DNA from: Candidatus Peribacteria bacterium RIFCSPHIGHO2_02_FULL_51_15 | GTDB taxonomy: Bacteria > Patescibacteriota > Gracilibacteria > Peribacterales > Peribacteraceae | Direction of reading: 5' to 3' | Length of the DNA stretch: 47,329 nt | NCBI GenBank assembly: GCA_001788965.1 | Contig: MFXU01000004.1 | Location: 1 to 47,329 of the forward strand | In this document: in pieces, positions 25,542 to 42,317 of the stretch | Layout of the letters: each line of letters starts with the position of its first letter | Position numbering within the stretch: the first letter of the stretch is position 1 | Made by a program: the position numbers and the translations under genes | The notes under the pieces: generated by a model | The model's input: the letters and a program-made list of their open reading frames with translations, nothing else | The model's database searches: none | Told to the model about the DNA's origin: nothing

Positions 25542-25676
25542 TACCACTTCGCGTTTAAAACGTTCTTAATCAGACGCGCTGGCGGTATGGAGTTCTTGGC
25601 TTGAGTAAACGCTACGCGGTACGAGATGATGCCGTTACGAATGACCGATTAGTTATGTTTTAAATGCAAAATGGTA
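25542..25676 (+). mobile_element. 135-bp MITE, copy 2 (TSD TGA)
   Basis: Identical sequence. TGA at 25539-25541 and 25677-25679. Confidence 0.85.
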
Positions 25677-25747
25677 TGAAGCGGCGTTATTGATCAATTG
25701 GTCCGACTAGATTTGGTCATTCTTTAAGGAAACTCTGAAAAATTGCT

Positions 25748-25840
25748 AAATTGTTAAATGGCTAAATTGTTCGCAGGCGACACATGGATTTATTGTCAGC
25801 AATTTAACAATTTAGCAACTTAACAATTGCGTTAGGATAT
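25748..25840. repeat. L-family periodic-arm palindrome (L5)
   Basis: AAATTGCTAAATTGTTAAATGGCTAAATTGTTCGC ... GCAATTTAACAATTTAGCAACTTAACAATTGC. Confidence 0.8.
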
Positions 25841-25872
25841 CAATAACAGCCGCCAGTCAGAGTTTCCTGATT

Positions 25873-26037
25873 TTATCTGCTCAAATCGATTCCTAAATCT
25901 TCATCTTCTTCTTTTTCAGTGTCGGTTTCTTCATCATCGTACTCGAAATCGCCCTCGTCATCCGGTCCTTCAACGTCAACGACATCGTCGTCATCATCGT
26001 CGCCATATGCGCCGGAAAATACTGCGCAAAGCTCCAT
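25873..26037 (-). CDS. hypothetical very acidic small protein
   Basis: 54-aa ORF from an ATG: MELCAVFSGAYG followed by a D/E-rich tail. There is no supporting homology, and the longer track ORF runs into a repeat arm. Confidence 0.25.
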   Translation of the reverse strand: MELCAVFSGAYGDDDDDDVVDVEGPDDEGDFEYDDEETDTEKEEDEDLGIDLSR

Positions 26038-26202
26038 AAAATTAAGAGAAATAAGAGAAAAAAGGATTGCGCGCGAAGTATAACCGTAAGGTTCTCCCAG
26101 GCAAGTTGATTTAACACTTTTATTTATTGTGTCTACATGTGCTTTATGGCTTATTTTACTTACCTTACCTACCTTATTTTCCTTACCTGCCTGACCTTTT
26201 TT

Positions 26203-26943
26203 ATGTATATTTCCCCAGCATTGCATAAATCTTTCTTTTTAATCGGCTTGCTTCTTGGCTCGTTGATACTCTCCGCCTGCGGTTCCGGGTCTGATACTTC
26301 AAAACCTCCTGCTCCGGACAGCTCAACGGGTTCGGGCCAACTGGAAACCTTGGAAACTTTGACCGCTAAAGCGGAACAGGGCCTCCCGTCTGCACAGTTC
26401 GAGCTTGGGACACTTTATTACGACGGCCAGGGCGGACTCGAAAAAGATGTTAAACTTGCACGCAAGTGGCTGGAGAAAGCCGCTGCCCGGGGCGAACCGA
26501 GGGCGCAGTTCAATCTCGGAGTCATGTACTACACGGGAATCGGGGTGAAACAGGACTATGCCGAGGCAAAAAAACTTTTCGAGGAATCCGCTGCGTCCGG
26601 CAATACGAGGGCGCAGTTCAATCTCGGAGTCATGTACTACCGTGGCGAAGGCATAAAACAGGATTACACCCAGGCACTGCGATACTTCACTACAGCGGCT
26701 GTCCAAAATTTCAATGAAGCGCAATTCAACATCGGCGTCATGTACGCCAAAGCCGAGGGAGTCAGTCAGGACATCGGAAAAGCTTATGCCTGGTTTTCAC
26801 TGGCTCGGGACAATGGGAACCCGAGAGCGGATGAAGCTATGAAAAATATCGAGCGCGGACTCGGTCCCGCCGACCTGAAAACCGTCAAAAAAATGGCCAA
26901 GGAGCTGAAAAGAAACGCTTTGAGCGGGACGACGAAAGAATAA
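26203..26943 (+). CDS. Sel1-repeat lipoprotein
   Basis: Signal peptide with lipobox LILSAC. About five Sel1-type repeats (AQFNLGVMYY.G.G..QDY..A). Confidence 0.75.
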   Translation: MYISPALHKSFFLIGLLLGSLILSACGSGSDTSKPPAPDSSTGSGQLETLETLTAKAEQGLPSAQFELGTLYYDGQGGLEKDVKLARKWLEKAAARGEPRAQFNLGVMYYTGIGVKQDYAEAKKLFEESAASGNTRAQFNLGVMYYRGEGIKQDYTQALRYFTTAAVQNFNEAQFNIGVMYAKAEGVSQDIGKAYAWFSLARDNGNPRADEAMKNIERGLGPADLKTVKKMAKELKRNALSGTTKE

Positions 26944-26969
26944 TCCGCGAAGCCCCTCCGGACTTCGCC

Positions 26970-27008
26970 GCGGCCGCCATCTCTCCTTTTACGGCGGCCG
27001 CTTTCTCA
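26970..27008 (+). terminator. rho-independent terminator candidate
   Basis: GCGGCCGCC - 14-nt loop - GGCGGCCGC followed by TTTCTC. Confidence 0.5.
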
Positions 27009-27055
27009 AAAAAATCGTGCATTTCTATTGGCATATCCTTATGATGTCGCCACTC

Positions 27056-27132
27056 GGGTCAGTAGCTCAGCCTGGTAGAGCAGTTGCCTCTTAAGCAATT
27101 GGCCGTGGGTTCAAATCCCACCTGACCCACCA
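27056..27132 (+). tRNA. tRNA-Lys (anticodon CTT)
   Basis: GGGTCAGTAGCTCAGCCTGGTAGAGC, anticodon loop CTCTTAA, T-arm GTGGGTTCAAATCCCAC, encoded CCA. Confidence 0.9.
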
Positions 27133-27161
27133 TTGACTTATATAAGCCACTTAACTATATT
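27133..27161 (+). promoter_or_regulatory. sigma70-like promoter
   Basis: TTGACT (27133-27138), 17-nt spacer, TATATT (27156-27161), upstream of the ORF at 27217. Confidence 0.4.
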
Positions 27162-27216
27162 TTGACAAATGAATTATGTGATGGAATGATATTAACATTC
27201 TTCCCCATTTTTCCGT

Positions 27217-27492
27217 ATGTCAGAAGCAGCGAGCACGGTCGAAATTCCGACGGTTGATCTCGGAAGCACCTATGAGGCAAATCGAAAAGTTGAGGATCTC
27301 GGAAAACTGGAGGGTGTTCAATCCACACGCGTTGAAGACAATAGAGTAATCCTCACCGTGAGTTCTGATGCAGCTCAAGACGTTCATTATATTCTCCGCG
27401 CAGCTGGATTGAGGCCATGGAATAGTGCTCGTTGTTTCCAGAAACTCGATCCGAACAACTGTGATACCACTTCGCGTTTAAAACGTTCTTAA
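27217..27492 (+). CDS. hypothetical small protein whose C-terminus is encoded by a MITE
   Basis: 91-aa ORF. The last 10 codons (DTTSRLKRS*) lie inside MITE copy 3. The reconstructed pre-insertion end would be ..NNCER*. Confidence 0.4.
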   Translation: MSEAASTVEIPTVDLGSTYEANRKVEDLGKLEGVQSTRVEDNRVILTVSSDAAQDVHYILRAAGLRPWNSARCFQKLDPNNCDTTSRLKRS

Positions 27493-27599
27493 TCAGACGC
27501 GCTGGCGGTATGGAGTTCTTGGCTTGAGTAAACGCTACGCGGTACGAGATGATGCCGTTACGAATGACCGATTAGTTATGTTTTAAATGCAAAATGGTA
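27465..27599 (+). mobile_element. 135-bp MITE, copy 3 (TSD TGA)
   Basis: Identical sequence. TGA at 27462-27464 and 27600-27602. Confidence 0.85.
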
Positions 27600-27678
27600 T
27601 GAGAGATAGTTGAGATATGTTCGAGGTATGGAACGAGGGAGTTCCAATTCAGTCTAATCTCGTCCACCAGAATTAAGT

Positions 27679-28242
27679 TCATTTCAGAACCTTGATAAAC
27701 CTGAGTGTTTTTCCTTTTTTACCGGTCGCATCTTTTACAATCTCGGCTTCACAAAGTCCTCTTATCAAAAGGAGGCCCCTGCCATGAGGTATTTCGATAT
27801 TTTTTTCGTCAGTGGGATCAGGTACCCGCTCCAGATCAAAATCGGGACCTTCGTCCCATATCTCAAATACGAGCCGGAGAGATCTTGAAAGAGCGTCGGC
27901 CGTTTCCTCGATCCTGATTTTCACTTTAACTTTCAATTCCGGATCATATTTCGTCCCCCATCTCAAAGCATTGGCCAGAGCCTCCTCTGCCAGCATTCTT
28001 CTTTTAAATAAAATCTCATTGTCATCGGTCGGCATTATTTCCCCCAAAAAGCCCAGGAAATCATCCCGTACCTCAGCCAAACGCCTGACCAATACGGGAT
28101 GTCTGCCGTCCGCAGCTTCATCACATGGATCAGAAAATATTGATTTTTCTGGTTCTACCGGACCGTAACCCCTCCTCAAGTCCAACGGGACACTGATTTC
28201 CCAATCTCTTTCCGCGATAACTTTGCAACCATTGTCGTCCAT
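27679..28242 (-). CDS. GHKL-type ATPase, anti-sigma-factor kinase-like (RsbW/SpoIIAB-like)
   Basis: 187 aa. N-box-like EEALANALRWG and G-box-like WDEGPDFD...HGRGLLLIRGL. Confidence 0.5.
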   Translation of the reverse strand: MDDNGCKVIAERDWEISVPLDLRRGYGPVEPEKSIFSDPCDEAADGRHPVLVRRLAEVRDDFLGFLGEIMPTDDNEILFKRRMLAEEALANALRWGTKYDPELKVKVKIRIEETADALSRSLRLVFEIWDEGPDFDLERVPDPTDEKNIEIPHGRGLLLIRGLCEAEIVKDATGKKGKTLRFIKVLK

Positions 28243-28339
28243 AATTCTATTATATAATAATTACTCTTATTATCAATGTCTGATACCAGCCAATTCCTGA
28301 GTAATTACCTTTCAAAATAATACTACTGTAAACGTTTTT

Positions 28340-29206
28340 TTAAAAAATTTTTTTCGCCTTCAATCTCCCCGAATCCCTGTAATCCTTCTCCATCGCCGCA
28401 ACCGGCAAGCCATCGTACCAGGCGATCAAGGGCGACTGATCAATTTCACCGGTGATCGATCGGCCGAATCGTATTTCATCAAATTGATCCGGCATCAGAT
28501 CGATCCTCGGAAAATTTTTCAAAATTTCCTTGAGCGGAATTACGTCCGTCCAATTGAGATCCTCGGGTTTTATTGATTTTTTCAAATCCCAATTCCCCAC
28601 TTTCGTCCGTGTCAGTGCATCGAGATACCCGCCGCACCTCATGCATTCACCCAGATCATGTGCCAATGAACGGATATATGTGCCGGAATCGCAGTGGACC
28701 CATAAAACAAGTTTTGGATACGCATACTCCTTCACTTTGCATTCGATGATCGTTATCTCGCGGCTTTTTAGCTCCACTTTTTCGCCGCGCATCGCTTTCC
28801 GGTAAGCGCGTGTGCCGCCGACATGCACCGCCGAATAAGCCGGCGGAATCTGCGAAATTTTGCCAAGAAAACGGTCGTCGATCAGCGCCTGAATCCGCGA
28901 GGCATCCTCCGGAGGCAGCCATCCGGCTTTCGGTTTATTCATCGAAATCGAACCTTCGGCATCATAAGTCGTGCTCACCGCTCCGAGCGTGACGGTCGCC
29001 AGATATTCCTTGGTAAGCCCCTTGAAGAGCTCTATGACTTTCAGCGCTTTGGCTCCAACCGCAAGAACCAAAAGCCCTTCGGCCATCGGATCCAGGGTGC
29101 CTAAATGCCCGACTTTTGCCTCATTTAACAAGCGCCGAACGCGGTCCACCATGTCGTGGCTTGTCGGCCCGCGCGGCTTGTGAAGTAAAATAAAACCGTG
29201 GCGCAT
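28340..29206 (-). CDS. truB: tRNA pseudouridine(55) synthase
   Basis: GHLGTLDPMAEGLLVL catalytic motif. 288 aa. Confidence 0.9.
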   Translation of the reverse strand: MRHGFILLHKPRGPTSHDMVDRVRRLLNEAKVGHLGTLDPMAEGLLVLAVGAKALKVIELFKGLTKEYLATVTLGAVSTTYDAEGSISMNKPKAGWLPPEDASRIQALIDDRFLGKISQIPPAYSAVHVGGTRAYRKAMRGEKVELKSREITIIECKVKEYAYPKLVLWVHCDSGTYIRSLAHDLGECMRCGGYLDALTRTKVGNWDLKKSIKPEDLNWTDVIPLKEILKNFPRIDLMPDQFDEIRFGRSITGEIDQSPLIAWYDGLPVAAMEKDYRDSGRLKAKKIF

Positions 29207-29260
29207 TGTAGGAAGGATAACTTAAAACCAAAGTGTATATCTGCCATAAGATAAAACGGC

Positions 29261-29342
29261 GAAATTGTTAAATTGTTAAATTGCTGATGCTGCCTTATCT
29301 GCCTGGAATAACAATTTGGCAATTTAGCAATTTAGCAATTTG
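29261..29342. repeat. L-family periodic-arm palindrome (L6, short core)
   Basis: GAAATTGTTAAATTGTTAAATTGCTG ... AACAATTTGGCAATTTAGCAATTTAGCAATTTG. Confidence 0.8.
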
Positions 29343-29368
29343 ATCTCTAACCGCTAGAGACTAGGCTC

Positions 29369-29935
29369 GTGGTTATGGTGAACCTTACCCTGAGCTGGGA
29401 TCTCTTCATTGTCGTTTTTTTCGCGATCATCGTGTCCTACAGCTTCATCATCGGCCAGCATCAGTCGATGAAAGTCATCATTGCTTCCTATATAGGTATC
29501 ATCGCGACACAGGGAATAGGAAATGTTTTGGCCCGGCTTATGGGCGGCGATTCACAGGCGATCTTGGCCTCGGTCGGAATTCCCTTCGATATGACCTTGA
29601 TATCGCTGGCTAAAATTTTTCTCTTCGCGGTTTGTATCATCATTTTCGTAATCCGGAGCGGCATCGAAGTGACTTTTGACAAAGAAGCCGGGAAGATATT
29701 GAGCATCGTCTATACCGGGCTTTTCGGTTTCGCGACCGCCGGACTGATCGTTTCGACCATCCTGACATACGCCTCCGGCGCAGGAATACTCGACAGCAGC
29801 ATTATCGCCAGCTCGACCCTGACTACCATGGCAAAAGGCAGCCGGCTGATGCAGCTGATGATTTTAAATCAGGATATATGGTTCACGCTCCCGGCGTTCC
29901 TGATCATCGCTACAGGATTAGTTCATAATGATTAA
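29369..29935 (+). CDS. polytopic membrane protein, function unknown
   Basis: 188-aa hydrophobic ORF with about five TM helices. GTG start, or ATG at 29375. Confidence 0.5.
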   Translation: MVMVNLTLSWDLFIVVFFAIIVSYSFIIGQHQSMKVIIASYIGIIATQGIGNVLARLMGGDSQAILASVGIPFDMTLISLAKIFLFAVCIIIFVIRSGIEVTFDKEAGKILSIVYTGLFGFATAGLIVSTILTYASGAGILDSSIIASSTLTTMAKGSRLMQLMILNQDIWFTLPAFLIIATGLVHND

Positions 29936-30012
29936 CTTCCATAGTCAAATCCGTTAAACTTGCGCAATGAAAATATAAAGTCGATAATTTCACTAATTCC
30001 CTCCCCTCTTTC

Positions 30013-30342
30013 ATGAAAAAATTTATATCGAGATTTTCCGGAGTCGCCCCGGTGTTTTTCCCAAAGGCCTTGGCGGCTCTGAATACACCGACAACTCCAA
30101 ACGGACTGGCTTCATCGACCGATCTTGTGGGTACCATAACTACAATAATAACCAAAGTTCTGGACTTTGTTCTGATTCTGGCGATTGCCTTCGTAGTTTA
30201 CGCCGGTATCCGCCTGATAATCTCCGGAGGGGACGACGCCGCCAAAGAAACGGCTAAGAAGACGATTATTTACGTAATAGTCGGCATCATCGTGATCCTG
30301 CTGGCACGGGTCATCGTGGTCTTCGTGAACAACTGGTTCTAA
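30013..30342 (+). CDS. TrbC/VirB2-like pilin-type small membrane protein
   Basis: 109 aa. Signal-like N-terminus followed by two TM helices separated by SGGDDAAKETAKK. This layout resembles type IV secretion pilins. Confidence 0.45.
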   Translation: MKKFISRFSGVAPVFFPKALAALNTPTTPNGLASSTDLVGTITTIITKVLDFVLILAIAFVVYAGIRLIISGGDDAAKETAKKTIIYVIVGIIVILLARVIVVFVNNWF

Positions 30343-30461
30343 AAGAGAGGTCATTGAAGTGACTAAGGTGACCGATTCAACCGGAAATTTGGAGAGGTTT
30401 TTGGTTACTGGTTTATGGTTTTTGTTTCAGCTGCCACTCTTTACTCGAACAACTGTATGTG

Positions 30462-30787
30462 CTCAGAAATTGGCTGATATCAGGTAGTGTTCACATATAA
30501 CTGCAAACAAAAAATCGCTTCACCTTTGACTCCGCAGCCACGGAGGGCTGCTGCTGTTTTAAAAAAAATCTTTTTCCACTCAGCAGCGCCCCTCCGCGGG
30601 CGCGGCAACTGCTCGTTGCCTTCGAGTAGTCATACCATTTTGCATTTAAAACATAACTAATCGGTCATTCGTAACGGCATCATCTCGTACCGCGTAGCGT
30701 TTACTCAAGCCAAGAACTCCATACCGCCAGCGCGTCTGATTAAGAACGTTTTAAACGCGAAGTGGTATCATTCAGCCAATTCGTGAG
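30462..30787 (-). mobile_element. about 188-bp TIR element (contains B-family hairpin B2), interrupted by MITE copy 4
   Basis: TIR CTCAGAAATTGGCTGA (30462-30477) pairs with TCAGCCAATTCGTGAG (30772-30787). The body is about 98% identical to the reverse complement of 47174-47329. Confidence 0.7.
30633..30767 (-). mobile_element. 135-bp MITE, copy 4 (TSD TCA, i.e. TGA)
   Basis: Reverse-complement copy. TCA at 30630-30632 and 30768-70. The uninterrupted homologous site lies at 47190-47193. Confidence 0.9.
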
Positions 30788-30870
30788 TTCCTTCGAACAA
30801 CTTCATAACCAAAAACTAGAAACTTTTCAGTACCTCGGTCGCGTCGGTCCCCTCGGTTCCTTCGGTCACC

Positions 30871-31425
30871 TCAGTTTTGTGCCGCCGGCATGACCTCCGG
30901 TATCACGATTCCGGTTTCGCTTTTGGCTTCTTTTTCCTCCTGCAAAGGCGCAAAAGGATCTTTCACCCATATCGCACTGCCCGTCACTTCGACTATGTCG
31001 GTCGCAGGCATTGGCTGGCGCTGAACGAAGTATTTCCGCGGAAACAGCCACTCGATGCAAAAATGACGGGTGTCAAACTGCACATCGGCACAGATTCCCA
31101 GACTTTTTTTCGAGCCTTTTATCCGTATTCGCTGACCCAATATTTTCCGGTTGTCGCGTATCAACGGCTGCAAACGAATCAATTCTTCGGGCGGAGCCAG
31201 CCTGTCGCGCGTCTTGATGTGAACTCCAGAACCCCAACCGATGATATCCACGGCCGGTAAAAAAAGTTCTCTGGCATCCGAAAGCGCAATCGAAGGGATG
31301 ACAAAAAAACCCTCGATGCGTCCGGTGTCGGGTTGTATTAGCGGATGCATCAGGTGTCCGACTGTTTCCAGTGTCTCATCATCGATGATCGGCAGGCCGG
31401 TGACCGACGATGAACGCACGTGCAT
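30871..31425 (-). CDS. PRC-barrel-like domain protein
   Basis: About 184 aa. Two repeats of a PRC-barrel-like pattern (GLPIIDDETLETVGHL.., LGQRIRIKGSKKSLGICADVQFD). Weak call. Confidence 0.35.
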   Translation of the reverse strand: MHVRSSSVTGLPIIDDETLETVGHLMHPLIQPDTGRIEGFFVIPSIALSDARELFLPAVDIIGWGSGVHIKTRDRLAPPEELIRLQPLIRDNRKILGQRIRIKGSKKSLGICADVQFDTRHFCIEWLFPRKYFVQRQPMPATDIVEVTGSAIWVKDPFAPLQEEKEAKSETGIVIPEVMPAAQN

Positions 31426-31477
31426 TACCAAGATTATAAAGGAACCTCTGATTAATGTCTTTTACAACTAGTTTGAA

Positions 31478-31651
31478 CCAAATTGTTAAATTGTTATATT
31501 GCTAAATTGTTCGCCCATTCGATTAGCTCAGGGCGACCTTATCGACACACAAACATGAGTGTCATCATGGGCGACCTGAGCTTGTCGAAGGTCGCAAGCG
31601 AAAACCACGTTTCTTGAATGCTTAACAATTTCGCAATTTAGCAATTTAACA
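31478..31651. repeat. L-family periodic-arm palindrome (L7)
   Basis: CCAAATTGTTAAATTGTTATATTGCTAAATTGTTCGC ... GCTTAACAATTTCGCAATTTAGCAATTTAAC. The core has GCAAGCGAAAAC plus a GCTCAGGGCGACC unit. Confidence 0.8.
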
Positions 31652-31704
31652 TCCGACAAAAAAACTATATGCCTACACCTGTCTTCTTTGCTAAACTTGC
31701 ATCC

Positions 31705-32634
31705 ATGCATCTCTTCTCCGGTTCGTCGCACCCCGCCCTGGCTGAAGCCCTGGCCAAAGAATTGAAAACCGATCTCGGAAAAATACTTTTGAAAGCGTTC
31801 AATTGCGGAGAACGGTACGTGAAGTTTCTGGAATCGATACGCGGAAAAGAGGTCTATCTGATTCAAACCGGAACAAAAAACCCAAACGTCGATCTGATGG
31901 AGCTTTTTTTGATGTGCCAGGCGGCGAAGCTCAGTTTCGCAAGCTCAGTCCATGTCGTCCTGCCGCATTTCCCGTATTCCCGCCAGGACCGGGTCGCCGA
32001 TCCGCGCGAGCCGATTTCCGCCAAACTTATTGCCCATCTTTTGGAAGCTTCCGGCGCGGACCACGTGATCACGCTTGACCTTCATTCCCCCCAGATCCAG
32101 GGTTTTTTCTCGGTTCCGGTGGATTCTCTCGACAGCCGGCAGATATTCGCCGAATACATAAAGAAAAAAAAGATCAAAGACCCGGTGGTCGTGGCCCCCG
32201 ACGTCGGCGGATCCAAGCGTGCGAAACGGCTTGCCGACTTGCTCGAAGCCGATCTGGCGATAATGCACAAACATCGCGCCGCTCACCATCAATCCGAAAT
32301 ACTGGAAGTCGTCGGCGAGATAAAAGGCCGCAGCTGCATAATTTTCGATGACCTGATCGACACCGCCGGCACGCTTTCCGCTGCCAAGGAAGCATTGATC
32401 AAGCGCGGCGCCCTGAAGGATGTCTACGCCGCGGCCACTCACGCCGTCTTCTCCGGCAAAGCCATCGAAAACCTGTCGAAGGCCGGATTCAACGAAGTCA
32501 TCGTCACCGACTCGATCCCAGTCAATCCGAAAGCCTTCACCGGCCTCACCGTCCTCCCCATCGCCCCCCTGCTGGCCGAAGTTATCCGGCATATCGAACG
32601 GGGTGAGAGTGTGACAGAGATTTATCTGCATTAA
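31705..32634 (+). CDS. prs: ribose-phosphate pyrophosphokinase
   Basis: MHLFSGSSHPALA.. start. Motifs PYSRQDR, DLHSPQIQGFF and IIFDDLIDTAGTL. Confidence 0.9.
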   Translation: MHLFSGSSHPALAEALAKELKTDLGKILLKAFNCGERYVKFLESIRGKEVYLIQTGTKNPNVDLMELFLMCQAAKLSFASSVHVVLPHFPYSRQDRVADPREPISAKLIAHLLEASGADHVITLDLHSPQIQGFFSVPVDSLDSRQIFAEYIKKKKIKDPVVVAPDVGGSKRAKRLADLLEADLAIMHKHRAAHHQSEILEVVGEIKGRSCIIFDDLIDTAGTLSAAKEALIKRGALKDVYAAATHAVFSGKAIENLSKAGFNEVIVTDSIPVNPKAFTGLTVLPIAPLLAEVIRHIERGESVTEIYLH

Positions 32635-32743
32635 TTCATGAGAGACAAACCTGCGGTTTTTCTCTCATGTGCTCTCTTTTCCTTTAAGCGGAGCGGCTCC
32701 AGCGCGGGAACCCGCGCCCTTCGACAGGCTCAGGGCGATCTGA

Positions 32744-32878
32744 TACCACTTCGCGTTTAAAACGTTCTTAATCAGACGCGCTGGCGGTATGGAGTTCTTG
32801 GCTTGAGTAAACGCTACGCGGTACGAGATGATGCCGTTACGAATGACCGATTAGTTATGTTTTAAATGCAAAATGGTA
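32744..32878 (+). mobile_element. 135-bp MITE, copy 5 (TSD TGA), inserted inside a GCTCAGGGCGA-CTGAGCTTGTCGA palindromic unit
   Basis: Identical sequence. TGA at 32741-32743 and 32879-32881. The flanks reconstitute the unit seen intact at 31569-31590. Confidence 0.85.
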
Positions 32879-33054
32879 TGAGCTTGTCGACGACCGAGAC
32901 CCGCGCTTCGCCGCAGCTTTTTTTATTTTGGTTGTTCAAGTAAATCAATATTCAGCAGCGGCCTTTCAGGCCGCGGTGATACAAGAATGAATTTCTTAAT
33001 TCTAAATCGGGGATTGGCTCTCGCGAACACCACCTGTTAAAATAATTTTGGTGT

Positions 33055-33131
33055 GGGCGATTAGCTCAGTTGGTTAGAGCGCGACACTGATAATGTCGAG
33101 GTCGGCTGTTCAAGTCAGCCATCGCCCACCA
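33055..33131 (+). tRNA. tRNA-Ile (anticodon GAT)
   Basis: GGGCGATTAGCTCAGTTGGTTAGAGC, anticodon loop CTGATAA, T-arm GCTGTTCAAGTCAGC, encoded CCA. Not adjacent to any rRNA. Confidence 0.9.
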
Positions 33132-33157
33132 AATTTCCCGTCAAGACATTTTAAATC

Positions 33158-33188
33158 CCGGGTGCGTCCTGCACCCGGAGCTTTTCTT
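33158..33188 (+). terminator. rho-independent terminator after tRNA-Ile
   Basis: CCGGGTGC - GTCCT - GCACCCGG followed by AGCTTTTCTT. Confidence 0.6.
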
Positions 33189-33395
33189 AACAGCAACAAG
33201 TAATAGTAGACCGCCGTGACGGCGATCCAGCTTAAGTAATTCGCGAGTTCCGACACTACCAAAGCCTTTCGGTTTCGGTCTCAGCCGGCCTCTCGATTGC
33301 TCCGAAGACGATCTGTCTCAGAAAACACAAATCGCCGAACCCCACTTTCATATTCTTCATCGCCTTTCCCCTTCTACTTTTAAACGTTGCCGTTA

Positions 33396-33530
33396 TACCA
33401 CTTCGCGTTTAAAACGTTCTTAATCAGACGCGCTGGCGGTATGGAGTTCTTGGCTTGAGTAAACGCTACGCGGTACGAGATGATGCCGTTACGAATGACC
33501 GATTAGTTATGTTTTAAATGCAAAATGGTA
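33396..33530 (+). mobile_element. 135-bp MITE, copy 6 (TSD TTA)
   Basis: Identical sequence. TTA at 33393-33395 and 33531-33533. Confidence 0.85.
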
Positions 33531-33726
33531 TTAGAAGAAAAGATCATGCAAACACATGTCTGCGCTAGTACTATATACTATTTTCATTTTTTTTGTATAT
33601 GTTCAAATAATTAGTACAAAAAGCTATTTCGTCACAATCAATTCCGCTTGTACAAGGGTAAATGTTGCAAAAAGGTTAATGAGTTTCTATAACGGTCTTA
33701 ATTTCTACCACTTCCCTCATTTTATT

Positions 33727-33981
33727 ATGAATCAGAAGTCCCCACTTTGCACGCTCGTGTGCGTACTTCTAGTCATCGGCGCCCTCAACTGGGGCCTCCA
33801 GGGTCTGGGCTTCCTGGTAAGCGGGGCAAACTGGAACGTCGTGAATCTGCTTCTGGCCAAATGGCAAACAGCGGAAGCCGTTGTATACGTAATAATCGGT
33901 CTTGCCGGACTTTATAAGCTCATCGTTTGGGGCAAGTGCTGCGGCAGTTCATGCTCGGCCCCCGGCCAACCCTCGGCCTGA
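33727..33981 (+). CDS. DUF378-family small membrane protein
   Basis: 84 aa from the ATG at 33727. GALNWGLQGLGF motif, two TM helices, Cys-rich tail. Confidence 0.6.
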   Translation: MNQKSPLCTLVCVLLVIGALNWGLQGLGFLVSGANWNVVNLLLAKWQTAEAVVYVIIGLAGLYKLIVWGKCCGSSCSAPGQPSA

Positions 33982-33999
33982 TGTAACCATCGAAAAAGA

Positions 34000-34029
34000 A
34001 AGCCTCCTTTTCTCTGGAGGCTTTTTTTA
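34000..34029 (+). terminator. rho-independent terminator
   Basis: AAGCCTCC - TTTTCTCT - GGAGGCTT followed by TTTTTAT. Confidence 0.75.
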
Positions 34030-34169
34030 TTTCACAAATTCCCGGTCGGGTAATGGGTCAAATCCTCCCGATTGAAATAAAATATCAAAGAAAGATCGCA
34101 AATGGATTGAATTCATCGACACTTTTCTCCCGTAGTTTTGGATTTGATCTCAGGTAATTTTGGCATCAG

Positions 34170-35594
34170 TCAGTTGACAAACTGTTCCACACTCAGGCTG
34201 TTCGGCTGGCTGACTCCGTCTTTTTTTATTTCGGATATCCGTTCATCCGCCGCGTCATAAGCGAAATCATAGGAAATGTCCCGGCCTCCCTCGGCGCGGA
34301 ACACGCCCGTTATTCGCACGCTGTCGGGCTGGTCTTCCAGTATTTTTATGGACGTGAGAGCCGATTGCATAAATCCGTTGCCTAAGATGAGGATTCGGGC
34401 TTTCGAAACGAGCTGATCATTTGTGAATTTTATCTCTCCGACATATTTAGCCGGTGATTCTCCGGAGTAATCGGCTTGCCTGATCTCGAAGCTATCACGC
34501 CTTACGATGCGGAAATCTTCATCGATTTTGGCTTGAATTTCATCGCCGAACAAAGGTTTGAGAATCGGCAATAACCGGTTTATTTCTTCTTCCCATATTT
34601 GCGCCTGTTTCGGGTAGCCGGCTTGCAAATATCCGGCCGGAATATTCGGCGTGACGTTGTGCATTATGCCGAATGCAACACCTGGGTCACTGGCCATGAC
34701 TTCGACCATCCGGTCCGACCAGATCTTTACCAGGCCGGACACAACAGGCTTCCTCGTAGAATCGGCGACCTGAGGCAAGGCATGCGGCAAATCCACGTAA
34801 ATATCCGATCCCGGCACCCGGCCCAGGATCAGTTTTGCGGCATCACCTGTGATCCGTTCTCCTTCCTGGATCAACCTGATTGTCACAAGCTCTTCCAATT
34901 CCGGAAAAGCACTGGATCTGACAAGCCGGTAAATCAACTCCACCCGGTCAACATCGTATAAACCGTCCTTCCGGATCTCCTTCCCAATCAGCCCTTCCCC
35001 CGAAATGGCCGGATTGTCTGCAATATCATTCGTGCCGATTGTCGCATCATCTGCATTCTCAAGCGTCTCAAAATTTATTTTTTCGTTTGCCAGCCATTCA
35101 GCCGGGAGAGGAGCTCTCCTGCCCGCCCCAGTCTCGAATACAAGCTGATACCCCGGCGGCAAAATCCAGCTTTTCCCGCCACTTTTTACCAGCATGGAAG
35201 CAGTCAAAGATACGATCGTGTTTTTCTCCGGCCCGGTCATCAACATGAAGTCTGTATCCATAGCGAAAGCTTTCACATCGCCGACACTCGCCTCTACCTG
35301 ACCAAATGCTCGTACATGGGCGGTTCCGCGGTTTAATTTGATCTTGTTTCCCCGGCCAAAAATATCGATCCTGCTCTCCGGTTCCAACCGCCCGTTTAGT
35401 GTGGAAGAAACGGAGAAATCGCGCGGCTTGGCTTCCGATTTTATAACCCAAACATCTGCGCTGGATCCGGCAGAGGCCCGCACGGGAACAATTTTCCCCA
35501 GTCCGGCCAACAACACCATACTCAAAACCATCAGCGGCATCGCGACGAAGTGGCGATGGTATCTTTTGGCCAGTTGGGTTTTTATGTTGGTCAA
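34170..35594 (-). CDS. secreted or membrane-anchored hypothetical protein (FecR-like N-terminal region)
   Basis: 474 aa. N-terminal TM/signal anchor, then a beta-rich segment resembling a FecR-type domain. The rest is unrecognised. Confidence 0.45.
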   Translation of the reverse strand: MTNIKTQLAKRYHRHFVAMPLMVLSMVLLAGLGKIVPVRASAGSSADVWVIKSEAKPRDFSVSSTLNGRLEPESRIDIFGRGNKIKLNRGTAHVRAFGQVEASVGDVKAFAMDTDFMLMTGPEKNTIVSLTASMLVKSGGKSWILPPGYQLVFETGAGRRAPLPAEWLANEKINFETLENADDATIGTNDIADNPAISGEGLIGKEIRKDGLYDVDRVELIYRLVRSSAFPELEELVTIRLIQEGERITGDAAKLILGRVPGSDIYVDLPHALPQVADSTRKPVVSGLVKIWSDRMVEVMASDPGVAFGIMHNVTPNIPAGYLQAGYPKQAQIWEEEINRLLPILKPLFGDEIQAKIDEDFRIVRRDSFEIRQADYSGESPAKYVGEIKFTNDQLVSKARILILGNGFMQSALTSIKILEDQPDSVRITGVFRAEGGRDISYDFAYDAADERISEIKKDGVSQPNSLSVEQFVN

Positions 35595-35647
35595 TCTGTA
35601 TATTCTAGCAGATATAAGCCATTTTTTCCATAGACAACATGGTAACT

Positions 35648-35836
35648 GCTCACTGACCTTGTAGGAGGTGTCGCTAAACTTGTCGCCTCACCCCCGGCCC
35701 CTCTCCCTCGCTTGTGCTCGGGGGAGCTTCGCTTCACCTCCGAATGAAGTGTGATACGGATTCCTCTCTCCCCCATCGGGAGAGAGGTGGCGTCGCAGCG
35801 CCGGAGTGAGGGCGAATGGCCGCAAGGTCAGTGAGC
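35648..35836. repeat. composite nested palindrome
   Basis: Outer IR GCTCACTGACCTTG / CAAGGTCAGTGAGC, middle IR TCGCCTCAC / GTGAGGGCGA, inner hairpin CCTCTCTCCCCCATCGGGAGAGAGG (35763-35787). Confidence 0.75.
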
Positions 35837-35849
35837 ACTTACACAACAT

Positions 35850-35931
35850 GGAGGAAACCGAAGAGTCCGATGAAACCGATGAAAGCTGCTTTTCCTCGGA
35901 CTCTTCGGTTTCCTCGGTTTCTTCGGATTCC
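35850..35931. repeat. F-family periodic-arm palindrome (F1)
   Basis: Arms have GAAACCGA/AGAGTCCGA-type 8-9-nt units and their complement. Core is GAAAGCTGCTTTTC. Confidence 0.8.
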
Positions 35932-35976
35932 CTCTCGAACATGGAAAACATCCACGAACCCCGCTACTCTTTCATC

Positions 35977-36471
35977 ATGCGCATCCTCGGTATCGATCCC
36001 GGGCTTACCGCCGCCGGTTTGGGTTTGATCGAATGCCGAAACACCGAGACAGCGGTCGTCGAATGGCTGACGATAACTACTGAAAAAACTTTTTGCCTGT
36101 CGGAACGGCTGGGTGAGCTGGCGAGAGATCTGCGGACATATCTCAAAGAAACAAACCCGGATCTGGCCGTCGTGGAGAAACTCTTTTTCGCCGCGAACCG
36201 CCGCACAGCTATGGACGTTGCCCATGCGCGGGGAGTGATACTGCTTACTCTCAGAAACGAAAACATCGACGTACTCGAAGTCACGCCGCTCGAGCTGAAA
36301 ACGGCGATAGCCGGAGACGGCACCGCCGACAAACGCCAGATGCAGGAAATGGTGAAGAGACTGCTCAAATTGAATGAAATCCCCTCCCCCGCCGATGCCG
36401 CGGACGGTCTGGCTCTCGCTCTGTATGGCGCTTATTGCAGCAGGAACAAAGGGGCATTATTGACGGTTTGA
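35977..36471 (+). CDS. ruvC: crossover junction endodeoxyribonuclease RuvC
   Basis: MRILGIDPGLTAAGLGLIE start, with a later ADAADGLALALY motif. The N-terminal extension in the track runs through repeats and was rejected. Confidence 0.85.
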   Translation: MRILGIDPGLTAAGLGLIECRNTETAVVEWLTITTEKTFCLSERLGELARDLRTYLKETNPDLAVVEKLFFAANRRTAMDVAHARGVILLTLRNENIDVLEVTPLELKTAIAGDGTADKRQMQEMVKRLLKLNEIPSPADAADGLALALYGAYCSRNKGALLTV

Positions 36472-37563
36472 TATCACCACCCCTTTATTGACTTCCCAAA
36501 CAGCGGTATCTCTGTATATCGGAACCTGATGCGTCGAAGTGATCAAAACCTGGTTCCCGGACAACGCTTTCAGAAGCGCTTCCTGATGCCTGTCATCCAG
36601 CTCCGAAAGCACGTCGTCAAGCAACACAGTCGGCCGTTCGCCGGAAACCTCTGCCAAAATATCAGCGCTTCGAAGCAACAGAGCAAGCAGGCAGGTGCGC
36701 TGTTGGCCGCGGGAAGCGAATTTCTCGAGTGGATGTCCGCGAAGCACCAGATGCCAATCATCCCGGTGAGGACCGACAGTAGTGGTACAAAGCATCAAAT
36801 CTATGTCTATCGATCCGGAGAGAAAGGTCTGAAATTCTTTTTTCAGCACCGAGGCTTCCGTTGCCTGAGTTTTTCTTTCATAAACCATCAGCGCATCATC
36901 GGACTCTTCACTGAGCAATGCCAGCGACGTTTTCAAACCGACGTTAAAAAGGCCGATGATTTTTATCCGGCGCAGCTGCACTTCAGCCGCGGTATGCGCC
37001 AGCTGATCATCCCAAAGCGTCACTTCGTTTTTTTCAGCCTGACCTTCGGAAATCCTTTTTAGAAGCGCGTTGCGTTGCCTGAGAAGCCTATCATATTCGA
37101 CCCTCAGACTCGTATAATTATCGTCGGTTTGGGAGATGAGAATATCGAGAAAACCTCTCCTGTGCTGCGGTGCACCGGTGAAAAGATCCAGATCCTCAGG
37201 CAGGAAAATCACGGTCTTGAGCGCCCCCACGAATTTAAGCAGCGGCAGGCGCACATCATTTATAAATGTCGCACATTTGCGCCGCGGAGCCCGTTGCCAG
37301 ACATATTCCAGGCTGCAAGCCGAACTGTCTGCCATTTCACCTTCGGCCCGGATGCGGAAAAAATCCGCCCCCCACCGGAGCACGTCATCCGGAGCGGCCT
37401 TTAGACACGACCGGCCATAAGACAAAAAAGAGAGCGCTTCGATCAGGTTCGTCTTGCCGCCGCCGTTCGGCCCGACGAACACATGCCGCCTGGCATTTCC
37501 AAGAGACAACGCGAGCCGATCATATGACCGCATATTTTCCAGTGACAGGGATTTAATTCGCAC
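36457..37563 (-). CDS. recF: DNA replication and repair protein RecF
   Basis: Walker A GPNGGGKTNLIEAL, Walker B VLLDDVLSELD. GTG start. The 3' end overlaps ruvC convergently by 15 nt. Confidence 0.9.
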   Translation of the reverse strand: MRIKSLSLENMRSYDRLALSLGNARRHVFVGPNGGGKTNLIEALSFLSYGRSCLKAAPDDVLRWGADFFRIRAEGEMADSSACSLEYVWQRAPRRKCATFINDVRLPLLKFVGALKTVIFLPEDLDLFTGAPQHRRGFLDILISQTDDNYTSLRVEYDRLLRQRNALLKRISEGQAEKNEVTLWDDQLAHTAAEVQLRRIKIIGLFNVGLKTSLALLSEESDDALMVYERKTQATEASVLKKEFQTFLSGSIDIDLMLCTTTVGPHRDDWHLVLRGHPLEKFASRGQQRTCLLALLLRSADILAEVSGERPTVLLDDVLSELDDRHQEALLKALSGNQVLITSTHQVPIYRDTAVWEVNKGVVISNRQ

Positions 37564-37614
37564 ACACGGATTGTAGATAAAGAATCAAGAATTTTACATT
37601 TTAAATTCTACATT

Positions 37615-38076
37615 CTACATTTCTTCGTTTTTACTTTTTTTCCCAAATTCATCTAATACTGAATAAATTACATCCAAATATTCCTTTCGCTTTATGAATT
37701 CCTTTAATCCCTCCCGAGTCACCCATCTGTAATCATTTATTTCCGAGTTATCCACTTTTATCACAGGCTCTACGTCGATTTTCACGACTACAAAACTTAA
37801 TGTTTGGCCGGAATTCGCGGCTTTGAAACGCTCGATGTATTCCGGCGGAAAATCGTAGCTGTAAGTTATCCGGCTCATAAAATCGATTCCGCTTATTTTC
37901 AACCCTGTCTCCTCGCGAAGTTCCCTTTTGGCCGCTTCCCGGTCGCTCTCCCCGGCCTCTATCCCCCCCTGCGGCAGCTGCCAGGCATCGGCCAGGCGGG
38001 GCTTATGTACAAGCAATATTTCGGGTGACTTATCTTTCAGCGCTAAAATTGAAACAGCCTTGCGATATTTCTTCAT
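37615..38076 (-). CDS. NUDIX hydrolase (RppH-like)
   Basis: Nudix box GGIEAGESDREAAKRELREETGL. Confidence 0.75.
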   Translation of the reverse strand: MKKYRKAVSILALKDKSPEILLVHKPRLADAWQLPQGGIEAGESDREAAKRELREETGLKISGIDFMSRITYSYDFPPEYIERFKAANSGQTLSFVVVKIDVEPVIKVDNSEINDYRWVTREGLKEFIKRKEYLDVIYSVLDEFGKKSKNEEM

Positions 38077-38111
38077 GTTTTGGATTATACCTTTTTATGA
38101 AATATGCCAGA

Positions 38112-38203
38112 AAGAAACCGAGGAAACCGAAGAGTCCGAAGAGTCCGAGGAAATGCTGATAATCCTCGGTTTCGTCGGTTTCTTCGGCTTCTTCGGTTTC
38201 CTC
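38112..38203. repeat. F-family periodic-arm palindrome (F2)
   Basis: GAAACCGAGGAAACCGAAGAGTCCGAAGAGTCCGAGG - GAAATGCTGATAATC - CCTCGGTTTCGTCGGTTTCTTCGGCTTCTTCGGTTTCC. Confidence 0.8.
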
Positions 38204-38207
38204 TTTT

Positions 38208-38384
38208 TTAACTTGAGTGTTTCTCCTCCTTCAGCTTAACTTTGGTCTGTTTCCTGCAACGATTGCAAAATTTCTCAAGCGGCCGGAAATCGGCCTTTTT
38301 CGCTTTTGATATCCGGACCGTGGTCGTCCGGGCATTGCAATCCGTACAAAAGCCGGCGTAAACAGTCTTCTTGCCGCGTGGCAT
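38208..38384 (-). CDS. rpmG: 50S ribosomal protein L33 (absent from the supplied ORF track)
   Basis: My own translation gives MPRGKKTVYAGFCTDCNARTTTVRISKAKKADFRPLEKFCNRCRKQTKVKLKEEKHSS*. It has the CxxC...CxxC spacing and the KFC.RCRK.T block typical of L33. Confidence 0.7.
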   Translation of the reverse strand: MPRGKKTVYAGFCTDCNARTTTVRISKAKKADFRPLEKFCNRCRKQTKVKLKEEKHSS

Positions 38385-38396
38385 AGCCCGGAGACT

Positions 38397-39290
38397 CTAC
38401 TGTGAGACGGCAAGAAGCGCAAGACCCAGGAAAACCAGCATGAAACTGAGGAGTTTCGCGCGCACCGAATCGGCATCCAGCAGTTCCTTCGGAGTGAAAG
38501 ACGGCGTATGCCGATGGCATAACCATCCTAAGATCATCACTATAAACGGTTGGATATTGCCGACGATCGAAACCAGCGACAGCTGCCCGGTGCGATACGA
38601 GAGCGTTCCGAAATACTCGCCGAGAAAAAACAAACCGATCACCGAAGCAGCCATGAGGTAAAAGTGCGGACCGACTCGCGTATTGAGCGTCTTTACTCTC
38701 CGGCGCAAACTCGGTACAAACCAGACCCCGGAAAAGGAAAGCAGTTCGCGACCGATGAGCAGCCAGAAGAACACTGGCTCAATCGATAACCCGGCCGCCA
38801 TCGAAGCTTTTTTCGCAAGTGAAACCGGCACGTAGAAGATCGCCAGGCCCGTGAGCAGTGCCAGTGACCGGAATGTGATCAGGCGGCTGCGCTGAAGAGG
38901 CAGGAGCAGGGCTCCGCCAAGCACCAGCGCGGCGCCCAACCCCTGGTTAAAAGACCACGCTTCATCGAAGAGCAAAAATCCCGCAATACTGAGCAAGATC
39001 GTCAGAATTGCCCACGCCAGACTGCTGATGGATGCGTCCACCCGCTCCAAAATAAGGAAGAAATAAATGTCTCCGAGATAAGCCGCCATGCCGGCAAGCA
39101 TGAGCATCGGCCACCATGCTGTATGAACATCGATCAGCAGGGAAAGCAGAATGAGCGCCGGCACGGTAAAAAGCGACTGGCTCCAGAGCAAAATCAGAGG
39201 ATGTTTCTCGTACCGTTTGACCAGCGAAGAGTCGATTACGCTGATCCCGGCCCACGCCGCAGTCGCAGCCAGAACAAGTGGGAACCACAT
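38397..39290 (-). CDS. EamA/DMT-family transporter
   Basis: 297 aa, about ten TM helices in two repeated halves. Confidence 0.7.
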   Translation of the reverse strand: MWFPLVLAATAAWAGISVIDSSLVKRYEKHPLILLWSQSLFTVPALILLSLLIDVHTAWWPMLMLAGMAAYLGDIYFFLILERVDASISSLAWAILTILLSIAGFLLFDEAWSFNQGLGAALVLGGALLLPLQRSRLITFRSLALLTGLAIFYVPVSLAKKASMAAGLSIEPVFFWLLIGRELLSFSGVWFVPSLRRRVKTLNTRVGPHFYLMAASVIGLFFLGEYFGTLSYRTGQLSLVSIVGNIQPFIVMILGWLCHRHTPSFTPKELLDADSVRAKLLSFMLVFLGLALLAVSQ

Positions 39291-39307
39291 TGGGGGAAGT
39301 ATACATA

Positions 39308-39431
39308 AAAGGTAAGGAAGGTAAGGGAAGTAAGGGAGGTGACGAAATAAAAGAAAGCGAGATACCTTCCTTGCTCTCCTTACTTCCGTACCTTCCTTAC
39401 TTTCCTTACCTTCCTTACCTTCCTTACCTTT
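39308..39431. repeat. K-family periodic-arm palindrome (K2)
   Basis: GGTAAGGAAGGTAAGGGAAGTAAGGGAGG - GTGACGAAATAAAAGAAAGCGAGATACC - complementary CCTTACNT units. Confidence 0.8.
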
Positions 39432-40373
39432 CTATGCCATTCCCCCTTTATGCCCGTTCCCCTGCAGATAATTGAATACGCTGTTTGCCGCTACCGATCC
39501 TTCGCCGGCCGCCGTGGCGAATTGGGCGAAGTGATTGCTCCCGCTAGTCAGATCGCCGGCTGCGAAAACTCCCGGCACATTGGTACCCTGGCCGGCATCG
39601 ACTTTCAGGAAACCCATCTTGTCGAGCTCACAGACGAGCTTCTGCGGCAGCTCCACCGCAGGATCGGAGCCGATTTCGATGAACACCCCATCAAGCTTCA
39701 GCTCATCCGAGCCTTCGAACGGTTTGTCGAGCTTCACCGCATTTACTTTTTGATCTCCCAAAACCTGAACCACATTCCGCTCCAAAACGAATTTAATGTT
39801 TAGCCGGCTCTTTACCTGGTCGATCCAGTACGGCTCTGCCCGTAAATCTTTGCGGCGATGAATCAGGTAAACGGTCTTGGCCACCTGCGCCGCTATGGCC
39901 GCGCCTTCGACCGCACTGTCCCCGCCTCCGATGACCGCCACTGTCTTCCCGCGGTAAAAGAACGCATCGCACGTGGCGCAATAAGTCACACCTTTTCCCG
40001 AGAATTCTTTTTCGCCGGGTATCCCGAGCTTCCGCTTCACCGAACCCGTGGTGAATATCACTGTCCGGCCGTCGACGGTTTCACCGCTCCCGAGAGTCAG
40101 GCGAAAACCGCCGTCAATCAAAGCCACTTCTTTCACAAAAGAAATTTTATATGTAACCAGATCACCGAAGCTCAAAGCGTGTTTTTTGAAATTCTCCATT
40201 AAATCCGGACCCTTTATTTCGATGTTTCCGGGCCAGTTTCCCACTTCGGCCGCCGTATTGCCCATACCACCTTCTTCGGCTCCAACAAGATACGTTTTCA
40301 GCTTGTACCTTGCCGTGTAAATCGCCGCGGTGTAACCAGCACTTCCGAGACCGATTATGAGAACATCAAACAT
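39432..40373 (-). CDS. trxB: thioredoxin-disulfide reductase
   Basis: GLGSAGYTAAIY FAD motif, redox centre CATCDAFFY, NADPH motif GGGDSAVEGA. Confidence 0.9.
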   Translation of the reverse strand: MFDVLIIGLGSAGYTAAIYTARYKLKTYLVGAEEGGMGNTAAEVGNWPGNIEIKGPDLMENFKKHALSFGDLVTYKISFVKEVALIDGGFRLTLGSGETVDGRTVIFTTGSVKRKLGIPGEKEFSGKGVTYCATCDAFFYRGKTVAVIGGGDSAVEGAAIAAQVAKTVYLIHRRKDLRAEPYWIDQVKSRLNIKFVLERNVVQVLGDQKVNAVKLDKPFEGSDELKLDGVFIEIGSDPAVELPQKLVCELDKMGFLKVDAGQGTNVPGVFAAGDLTSGSNHFAQFATAAGEGSVAANSVFNYLQGNGHKGGMA

Positions 40374-40377
40374 ATTT

Positions 40378-40460
40378 GATAGATATAAGATATAAGATGA
40401 AAGATATAAGTACTTATATCTTATGTCTTACATCTTACATCTTTCTCACATCTTACATCT
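40378..40460. repeat. T-family periodic-arm palindrome
   Basis: GATATAAG/GATGTAAG-type octamers (ATATAAGATATAAGATGAAAGATATAAGTA) face CTTATATCTTATGTCTTACATCTTACATC. Confidence 0.75.
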
Positions 40461-40514
40461 TTTTTTAAGTAGGAATCTTGAAATTTTATTTTTTCTCAAA
40501 CGTATCATTTCCAC

Positions 40515-41144
40515 ATGATACTTCCGTTCCAATCCCGAACGGCAGCCGGGCGGATCCTCGCCGGAAAACTGGGAGAATACGCCGGAAAAAAAGACACGAT
40601 CATATTGGGGCTGGTGCGCGGAGGAATCGAGATCGGAGCCGCATTGTCCTCGATATTGAAGCTGCCGCTTCACCCTTACATCGTCCGAAAACTGGGACAC
40701 CCATCCCACCGTGAATACGGAATCGGCGCCATCGGCGAAGGCGGCGCCACTTACCTGGATGAAAAAACGATGCGCAGCCTGGATCTGGAATGGGAAGACA
40801 TGGAACCGGTGATCGAGGAGGAGATGCTGGAACTGAGGCGCCGGAAAGAGGCTTATTCTGCAAATAAAAGACCGTCTTTTCTCGGAAAATCAATAATCCT
40901 GACCGACGATGGCGCCGCAACCGGCGGCACGATGTTCGCGGCCGTGGAAGACCTGCGCAAAGCCGGCGTTCAAAAAATCGTCATCGCGCTCCCCGTGAGC
41001 CCACCGGGTATCGAGGATGAATTTTTGAGAATTGCGGACGACGTGATAATTCTCGCCACCCCCGAACCGTTCGAAGCTGTCGGCAAGTGGTATGTGAGTT
41101 TTCCGCAGCTGACGGATGAGGATGTATTGCAATTACTCAAATGA
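40515..41144 (+). CDS. phosphoribosyltransferase-family protein
   Basis: 209 aa. PRTase motif SIILTDDGAATGGTM. Confidence 0.7.
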   Translation: MILPFQSRTAAGRILAGKLGEYAGKKDTIILGLVRGGIEIGAALSSILKLPLHPYIVRKLGHPSHREYGIGAIGEGGATYLDEKTMRSLDLEWEDMEPVIEEEMLELRRRKEAYSANKRPSFLGKSIILTDDGAATGGTMFAAVEDLRKAGVQKIVIALPVSPPGIEDEFLRIADDVIILATPEPFEAVGKWYVSFPQLTDEDVLQLLK

Positions 41145-41185
41145 ATCAAATCTGAAATCAATTTGATCGTGGGGGAGCACGATCC

Positions 41186-41212
41186 GGAAGCCTTAGGCTT
41201 CCATTCCTTTTT
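41186..41212 (+). terminator. rho-independent terminator
   Basis: GGAAGCC - TTA - GGCTTCC followed by ATTCCTTTTT. Confidence 0.7.
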
Positions 41213-41237
41213 CCGAATCGTCTGATCTCGCGCCTAC

Positions 41238-42312: not shown

Positions 42313-42317
42313 CTCTA

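Follow-up and report, generated by a model that had tools for sequence, protein, structure and literature searches.

Two nested MITE families and an element-derived end of murD in a Candidatus Peribacteria genome

The locus described here raises the question of how the end of an essential gene came to share its sequence with a second site on the same contig. The window, that is, the whole stretch of 47,329 nucleotides that was analysed, is the entire contig C4 of the Candidatus Peribacteria genome G000 (1.18 Mb, 63 contigs, 97% complete). Near its right-hand end lies murD, and the last codons of this gene fall within a sequence (copy B) that occurs again upstream in inverted orientation, interrupted by a large insert (copy A). 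CPR bacteria are usually thought to be poor in mobile elements. The reading that we favor, with high confidence, is that two unrelated MITE families are nested at this locus, that the outer one, which carries IS66 ends, supplies the tail of murD, and that the inner one is the younger of the two.

We compared the two loci by direct reading and by BLAST, with the nested insert taken out of 30440-30810. Positions 47329-47173 match the reverse complement of 30494-30794 minus the insert at 97.5% identity over 158 bp (E = 3e-73), and given this E value the likeness cannot be chance. The sole large difference is a 135-bp block at 30633-30767 with TCA on either side: copy A reads GAGTAG-TCA-(135 bp, 30633-30767)-TCA-TTCAGCC, and copy B reads GGCTGAA-TGA-CTACTC at 47184-47199. 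The initial annotation had described 30462-30787 as the reverse complement of 47174-47329 at about 98% identity, apart from one insertion. Pairwise alignment bears out the single 135-bp exception, and the match itself holds for 30494-30787 (97.5%), but 30462-30493 has no partner inside the window because the contig ends at 47329.

Copies A and B carry differing 8-bp duplications and differing flanks, and they are independent insertions of one outer element. Because they are independent, and the TCA is occupied in A and uninterrupted in B, the comparison of a filled with an empty site is valid. Copy B, with its unbroken TGA/TCA, is thus a paralogous empty site for the inner MITE; no orthologous empty site was found, copy A being filled in 7 of 7 conspecific assemblies. 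The proposal that a 135-bp MITE had inserted with a 3-bp duplication is therefore upheld, with TCA present on both sides in A (30630-30632 on the left and 30768-30770 on the right, as read from copy A) and once in B, and with TNA at 88/95 copies genome-wide.

The inner MITE (30633-30767, + strand; TACCATTTTGCATTTAAAAC ... GTTTTAAACGCGAAGTGGTA) is 135 bp long, has no ORF and is bounded by imperfect TIRs of about 20 bp (TACCATTTTGCATTTAAAAC and TACCACTTCGCGTTTAAAAC, 17/20 matching). A BLAST search of its core against the genome returned 95 full-length copies, of which 82 show 100% identity and the others at least 98.5%; with truncated copies there are about 125 loci (about 128 left termini). The 3-bp duplication matches at 88 of the 95 full copies, beyond which the flanks are unrelated, and the duplicated triplet is TNA at all 88 scorable sites (TCA 38, TGA 30, TTA 12, TAA 8), within a weakly palindromic context, sTNAs. 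It accounts for 1.45% of the assembly, contains 37 of the 126 contig ends and is the main cause of the fragmentation of G000. Its TIR was not found in G001, a genome of the same genus, nor in 144 of the 151 genomes of the family, so the burst is species-specific and recent. Two sister MITEs of about 122-124 bp (C44:1004-1127 and C38:7276-7397) have the TIR of the inner MITE (TACCAATTTGCATTTAAAAC / TACGAAATTGCATTTAAAAC), a TCA duplication and an unrelated interior.

At 9 of the 88 sites the inner MITE coincides precisely with the stop codon of an ORF of 80 codons or more, and the duplication keeps the stop; one such copy lies in the window (25542-25676) and eight lie elsewhere, for example at C42:24758, C26:15915 and C54:16085. 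A preference for stop codons was considered and rejected, since 9/88 compares with roughly 10% expected by chance, a rough estimate that assumes insertion to be tolerated only at non-coding TNA sites and stop codons.

As to where the inner MITE comes from, TNA or TWA duplications of 3 bp are found in the IS5 family (IS1031/IS427/ISL2-type) and in PIF/Harbinger-type elements. The inner MITE resembles some of these in its TNA duplication, its weakly palindromic sTNAs context and its imperfect TIRs of about 20 bp, which makes them a candidate, though unproven, parentage. It differs from them in that no DDE_Tnp_1 (PF01609) or DDE_Tnp_4 (PF13359) gene is present in its 97%-complete host genome, and in that TIR pattern scans of the 151 family genomes and the GTDB species genomes revealed no autonomous partner. 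Three ORFs checked beside TIR matches in other Peribacteraceae are host-type (NTP transferase, sortase and Bro-N), and at the one TIR-match locus checked there was no second TIR within 3 kb.

The outer element is best defined in copy A, which spans 30455-30794 (+ strand) by BLAST and flank divergence and comprises 202 bp of its own plus the nested 135 bp and the 3-bp duplication. Its 16-bp inverted termini, which the initial annotation had recognized, are present at both ends: CTCAGAAATTGGCTGA lies at 30462-30477, and CTCACGAATTGGCTGA is the reverse complement of 30772-30787. When all copies are aligned with their flanks, however, homology reaches 7 bp past this 16-bp TIR at either end. The left terminus is therefore placed at 30455-30477 (+ strand; GTATGTG CTCAGAAATTGGCTGA), a form common to at least 20 other genomic termini, and the right terminus, from the terminal-motif listing, at 30772-30794 (− strand; reverse complement GAAGGAA CTCACGAATTGGCTGA). 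Across the family the left end reads GTATGTG-CTCAGGAATTGGCTGA, the reverse-complemented right end reads GAAKRAA- or GTAATTA-CTCACGAATTGGCTGA, the terminus consensus is G(T/A)A....CTCA(C/G/T)GAATTGGCTGA, and elements are 198-202 bp long. The host sequence had been described as a mobile-looking element of about 188 bp; its mobility stands, on four copies with 8-bp duplications, but the length does not, the element measuring 202 bp.

Just outside copy A the 8-mer GAACAACT is found at 30447-30454 and recurs at 30795-30802 (8/8). Further copies detected by BLAST are at C23:4572-4775 and C53:2750-2949, with partial copies in C16 and C62. The copy in C53 is flanked by AAAATTGA (8/8), that in C23 by CTTATAAA / ATTATAAA (7/8), and the murD copy by CACTATCA (8/8, from scaffold L062); the flanks of these four complete copies are otherwise unrelated. 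A 9-bp duplication was tried and rejected, the ninth base matching in only 2 of 4 copies; at murD the ninth matching base is the element's own first base, G. A second subfamily (C5:3003-3192, C58:4973-5162, C62:1287-1476 and C47:34675-34860) has only the termini in common with the first. The outer element lacks coding capacity and folds into a long hairpin (−85.8 kcal/mol, z −7.7). Its copies differ by 3-6% and those of the inner MITE are identical, so the outer family is probably the older of the two. A lone outer-family terminus, GTAATTACTCAGGAATTGGCTGG, also occurs in the window at 28286-28308 (− strand), between an HATPase-like gene and truB; it has no partner end and may be a remnant.

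At the other locus, murD (UDP-N-acetylmuramoyl-L-alanine--D-glutamate ligase) is an ORF of 449 aa at 45844-47193 (+ strand). Its product carries the Mur_ligase_M (PF08245) and Mur_ligase_C (PF02875) domains and aligns from residue 1 to about residue 440 with the MurD of 40 of 41 related genomes. Copy B, at 97.5% identity to A, begins at 47167, runs on the − strand and without a nested MITE to 47329, and is ended by the contig end. We therefore looked for contigs reaching past the window through the exact 449-aa MurD protein in public conspecific assemblies. Scaffold L062 supplies the missing part: the full copy B is 198 bp (L062:6326-6523), and it shows the second TIR, for which the initial annotation had proposed to look beyond the contig end, as well as the duplicated 8-mer. 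One CACTATCA lies inside murD at 47159-47166 (codons ..A L S) and the other at L062:6524-6531, so that the layout reads ...AACACGG CACTATCA (GTAATTACTCATGAATTGGCTGAATGA ... CCAATTCCTGAGCACATAC) CACTATCA GCC TGA (inner MITE) TGA CAAATAACCGTCATGTACACTATCAGGAAATG... The final ATG of this layout begins a 186-aa membrane protein, whose gene in G000 ends contig C32. A terminator and promoter scan of the region from murD through the element to the next gene gave nothing convincing on the relevant strand.

This arrangement, murD...CACTATCA followed by 198 bp and CACTATCA again, shows that the last eight codons of murD and its stop are element DNA. They occupy 47167-47193 (+ strand) and read GTA ATT ACT CAT GAA TTG GCT GAA TGA, or VITHELAE and stop. 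The element origin of this C-terminus, proposed earlier, is thus supported by the duplications in L062 and by the absence of the tail from orthologs; its extent, given as (T)HELAE plus TGA, needed revision from 5-6 to 8 residues because the outer element extends 7 bp further in both directions. The stop itself (TGA, 47191-47193) is the unoccupied equivalent of the TCA taken by the inner MITE in copy A. The 23-nt terminus that forms the tail occurs also at C16:15508, C58:5162 and C62:1476, none of which adjoins murD. VITHELAE was present in every conspecific assembly examined, and at least 20 contigs from independent assemblies encode an identical 449-aa MurD, so that the junction between murD and the element is no one-off artefact.

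The conspecific records, the Rifle aquifer assemblies GCA_001787635.1 and GCA_001787695.1, also raise a rival reading in which part of the population carries a real 16.4-kb inversion (30795-47166) between the inverted copies, the murD copy being a recombination product in addition to an insertion. In contigs L061 (6326-6526) and L063 of these assemblies, murD leads through an A/B hybrid of the outer element that lacks the nested MITE into sequence 100% identical to the reverse complement of window 30632..25630. A search of the 7 assemblies that carry the gene to the right of copy A, however, yielded no reciprocal junction: A is filled by the inner MITE in all of them, and L140 and L142, the two that reach past the inner MITE, are A-like and uninverted. 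The join moreover falls in a place where an assembler would be misled by a high-copy MITE and a 97% repeat, and it is probably an assembly chimera. We consider an inversion unlikely.

What kind of element is it? The IS66 transposase (PF03050) is absent from our 97%-complete assembly and was found in 10 of the 151 genomes of the family. In one of these, from another genus (L074 in G015), perfect 25-bp inverted repeats, GACTGAACTCACGAATTGGCTGAAG, bracket an ORF of 535 aa that matches DDE_Tnp_IS66 (PF03050; E = 1e-44); a zf-IS66 match (PF13005; E = 2e-5) is below Pfam's cut-off. The repeats contain the 16-bp TIR core of the outer MITE, CTCACGAATTGGCTGA, exactly, and the outer element is therefore an IS66-type MITE. 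L080 (G102) is a second case of an IS66-transposase element with outer-MITE ends. No clean 8-bp duplication was seen around the L074 insertion sequence. In this element (L074:59-1808; G015:C77) the transposase terminates in ...SANS*, and the TGA that stops it lies within the terminal inverted repeat TCAGCCAATTCGTGAG.

Classic IS66 termini are of the GTAAGCG type. The outer MITE agrees with the IS66 family (the single-transposase, ISBst12-like group) in its 8-bp duplication, in termini that start G(T/A)A and in having its 16-bp core within the 25-bp TIR of a transposase-encoding element from the Peribacteraceae. It departs from that family in that its termini are not GTAAGCG-type and its host genome has no IS66 transposase.

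The same evidence bears on the possibility that the shared sequence of about 200 bp is instead a structured intergenic repeat of the REP/BIME kind, or a hairpin with a regulatory role, which recombination or gene conversion has spread and which murD happens to abut. Its long hairpin (see above) would fit such a repeat, its GC-rich central palindrome occurs alone at many other loci, and the genome lacks a transposase of the IS66, IS5 or Harbinger type. The 8-bp direct duplications of unrelated flanks at four copies nevertheless largely refute this reading, and two further points speak against it: the 16-bp core recurs within the 25-bp inverted repeats on either side of an IS66-family transposase gene from a related genus, and a second subfamily has only the termini in common. 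We regard it as very improbable and continue with the outer element as an IS66-type MITE.

If the element supplied the end of murD, other MurD proteins should end differently — and among about 30 orthologs examined none has the HELAE ending. MurD of 40 related genomes is alignable only to about residue 436-441; after the motif FKNFExRGxxF the ortholog tails are 1-17 residues long and all different, and the closest non-conspecific MurDs (65-67% identity) end ..ALK* or ..ALKS*. The new tail would have been tolerated, since the region past FKNFExRGxxF is naturally variable. That the tail is instead native, the element having acquired its terminus from murD and the repeat being a scattered duplication of the 3' part of that gene, is very improbable, for although the 9-mer CACTATCAG is found three times around the locus and could hint at local duplication, the outer terminus occurs at more than 20 ends elsewhere and in another genus, the third CACTATCAG is kept in G001, which has no outer element, and MurD orthologs lack VITHELAE.

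The 9-mer itself consists of the murD target duplication plus one base. Its third occurrence, 3 nt upstream of the ATG of the next gene (L062:6524-6700 / G000 C32:18111-18198), is conserved in G001, and its identity with the murD duplication is probably chance (p about 0.01).

No orthologous element-free murD site was found, the nearest non-conspecific MurD being only 65-67% identical. The relative L148, however, has a murD-to-next-gene junction of 33 bp with the same downstream gene, and here murD stops at the TGA of CCTGACAAATAACCG. With both MITEs removed and one copy of each duplication kept, the G000 junction is collinear with that of L148. The native-type TGA in G000 lies 3 bp past the far duplication, now 206 bp from murD, and is itself the target of a second copy of the inner MITE. 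The element-free site would read ...GCACTATCAGCC(C)TGACAAATAACCG, with the native stop at or near that TGA. In the junction reconstructed without MITEs the native-type TGA is off by +1, and the murD frame has no stop and continues in frame into the next gene. Either this frame difference arose after the element had given murD a new stop, or the lineage used another stop.

Two further features of murD in this group were observed. At 47042-47071 the gene contains a 7-nt tandem array (CTCAAAG x4.3) that encodes SQSSKLIAHS. At this position MurD of G001 and other relatives contains about 150 additional residues, in frame and with a DUF559/PF04480 endonuclease-like domain (L032:2673-3130); the insert is flanked by ...PPSSPNPFPPWGKGN and ...SPLPAGEGQGVRE, and a third relative, P0003, retains only a footprint, SPLPSGEGTGVRE. 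The position is a hot spot for in-frame insertions. Between murD and the next gene, G001 and L150 also have another, different insert, about 190 bp long (L032:3222-3430, L150:2551-2745). Its left edge is IS66-terminus-like (ACGAATTGCCCAGA, AAATAAGCGxATACGAATTGCCCAGA) and includes the TAA stop of MurD; its right end has no TIR, and its duplication matches at only 6/8 positions. This insert may represent a parallel event.

Taken together, our observations are consistent with the following course of events. The outer MITE inserted twice independently, as copy A in the spacer after a pilin gene and as copy B in the last codons of murD. Insertion B removed the native end of the murD frame, and translation now continues for 27 nt into the element before it meets a stop just within the terminal repeat. 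The 135-bp MITE, far more abundant and much younger, would have entered copy A at a later time, at the triplet equivalent to the murD stop in B.

It is tempting to ask why the tail of a gene was the target at all. At 6 of 22 outer-family termini we found TTGACA (with at most one mismatch) at an offset of 11, which corresponds to the 8-bp duplication plus 3 bp, from the end of the element: C5, C47:65660, C53, C58, C62 and the far end of the murD copy, where the box reads CTGACA. Every other offset from 0 to 39 was represented by at most 2 termini, with about 0.1 expected by chance. Counted by locus, approximately half of the outer family, murD copy included, has a TTGACA box downstream at a distance of exactly 11 bp, a feature that sets it apart from the IS66 family, for which our literature search found no description of a fixed spacing to −35 boxes. 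Several offset-11 boxes are followed 16-17 nt later by a TAnAAT-like hexamer. The murD site has the CTGACA box only, with a poor −10, and a consensus scan calls no promoter there.

The CTGACA at offset 11 means that the murD insertion fits this habit of docking at promoters, and docking upstream of a −35 box is a plausible explanation of why the tail of a gene was hit, since in so compact a genome the −35-like box of the next gene and the native stop of murD overlap. A more specific scenario may be put forward tentatively, and we would not give it even odds. The outer MITE would home to a fixed distance, its 8-bp duplication and a further 3 bp, ahead of sigma-70-type −35 boxes. Genes being densely packed in this CPR genome, the stop of murD would be the TGA inside cTGACA, within the −35 box of the next gene, and homing to this box would necessarily decapitate the murD tail. 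The outer terminus, which offers stops in all three frames within 27 nt, would then repair the decapitated tail, and the inner MITE, with its requirement for TNA, would afterwards hit the displaced TGA/−35 triplet. If true, promoter-docking transposons would systematically remodel the C-termini of upstream genes in streamlined genomes.

Apart from this scenario, the locus matters in three respects. An essential peptidoglycan-synthesis gene of a 1.2-Mb CPR genome takes its stop and its last 8 residues from transposon DNA. The load of the 135-bp MITE (1.45% of the assembly, 37/126 contig ends) is of consequence for the assembly and annotation of such genomes. Finally, the constant spacing of the outer family from TTGACA boxes contributes independent data on possible promoter-homing by some IS66-type elements.

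Transposable elements are not mentioned in the paper that describes complete Peribacteria genomes (PMC4736985). Small mobile palindromic repeats within coding sequence have been described as Rickettsia palindromic elements and enterobacterial RU/ERIC-type repeats (PMC2759123, PMC2229807). As in our case, a small palindromic mobile repeat joins a coding sequence without destroying the gene; those repeats, however, are mostly in-frame and internal, whereas the outer element truncates and replaces the extreme C-terminus of MurD and provides the stop. A closer parallel is found in Coxiella burnetii, in which copies of QMITE1 and QMITE2 overlap functional genes at their 3' ends, an in-frame QMITE2 insertion provides the last 33 residues of EnhC in strain Dugway, and IS1111 preferentially inserts into QMITE2, giving nesting (PMC5896051). 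Both systems thus have a MITE-derived C-terminus and an element nested in a MITE. They differ in that the Coxiella host is a gammaproteobacterial pathogen with other element families and another parent IS, and in that an essential peptidoglycan gene here takes its stop from the outer element as well, and the element nested in the MITE is a second MITE. Both phenomena, nested MITEs and C-termini derived from MITEs, are therefore already known, and murD is a clean, well-supported example from an under-studied lineage; the only less ordinary aspect of the outer family is its fixed spacing to −35 boxes.
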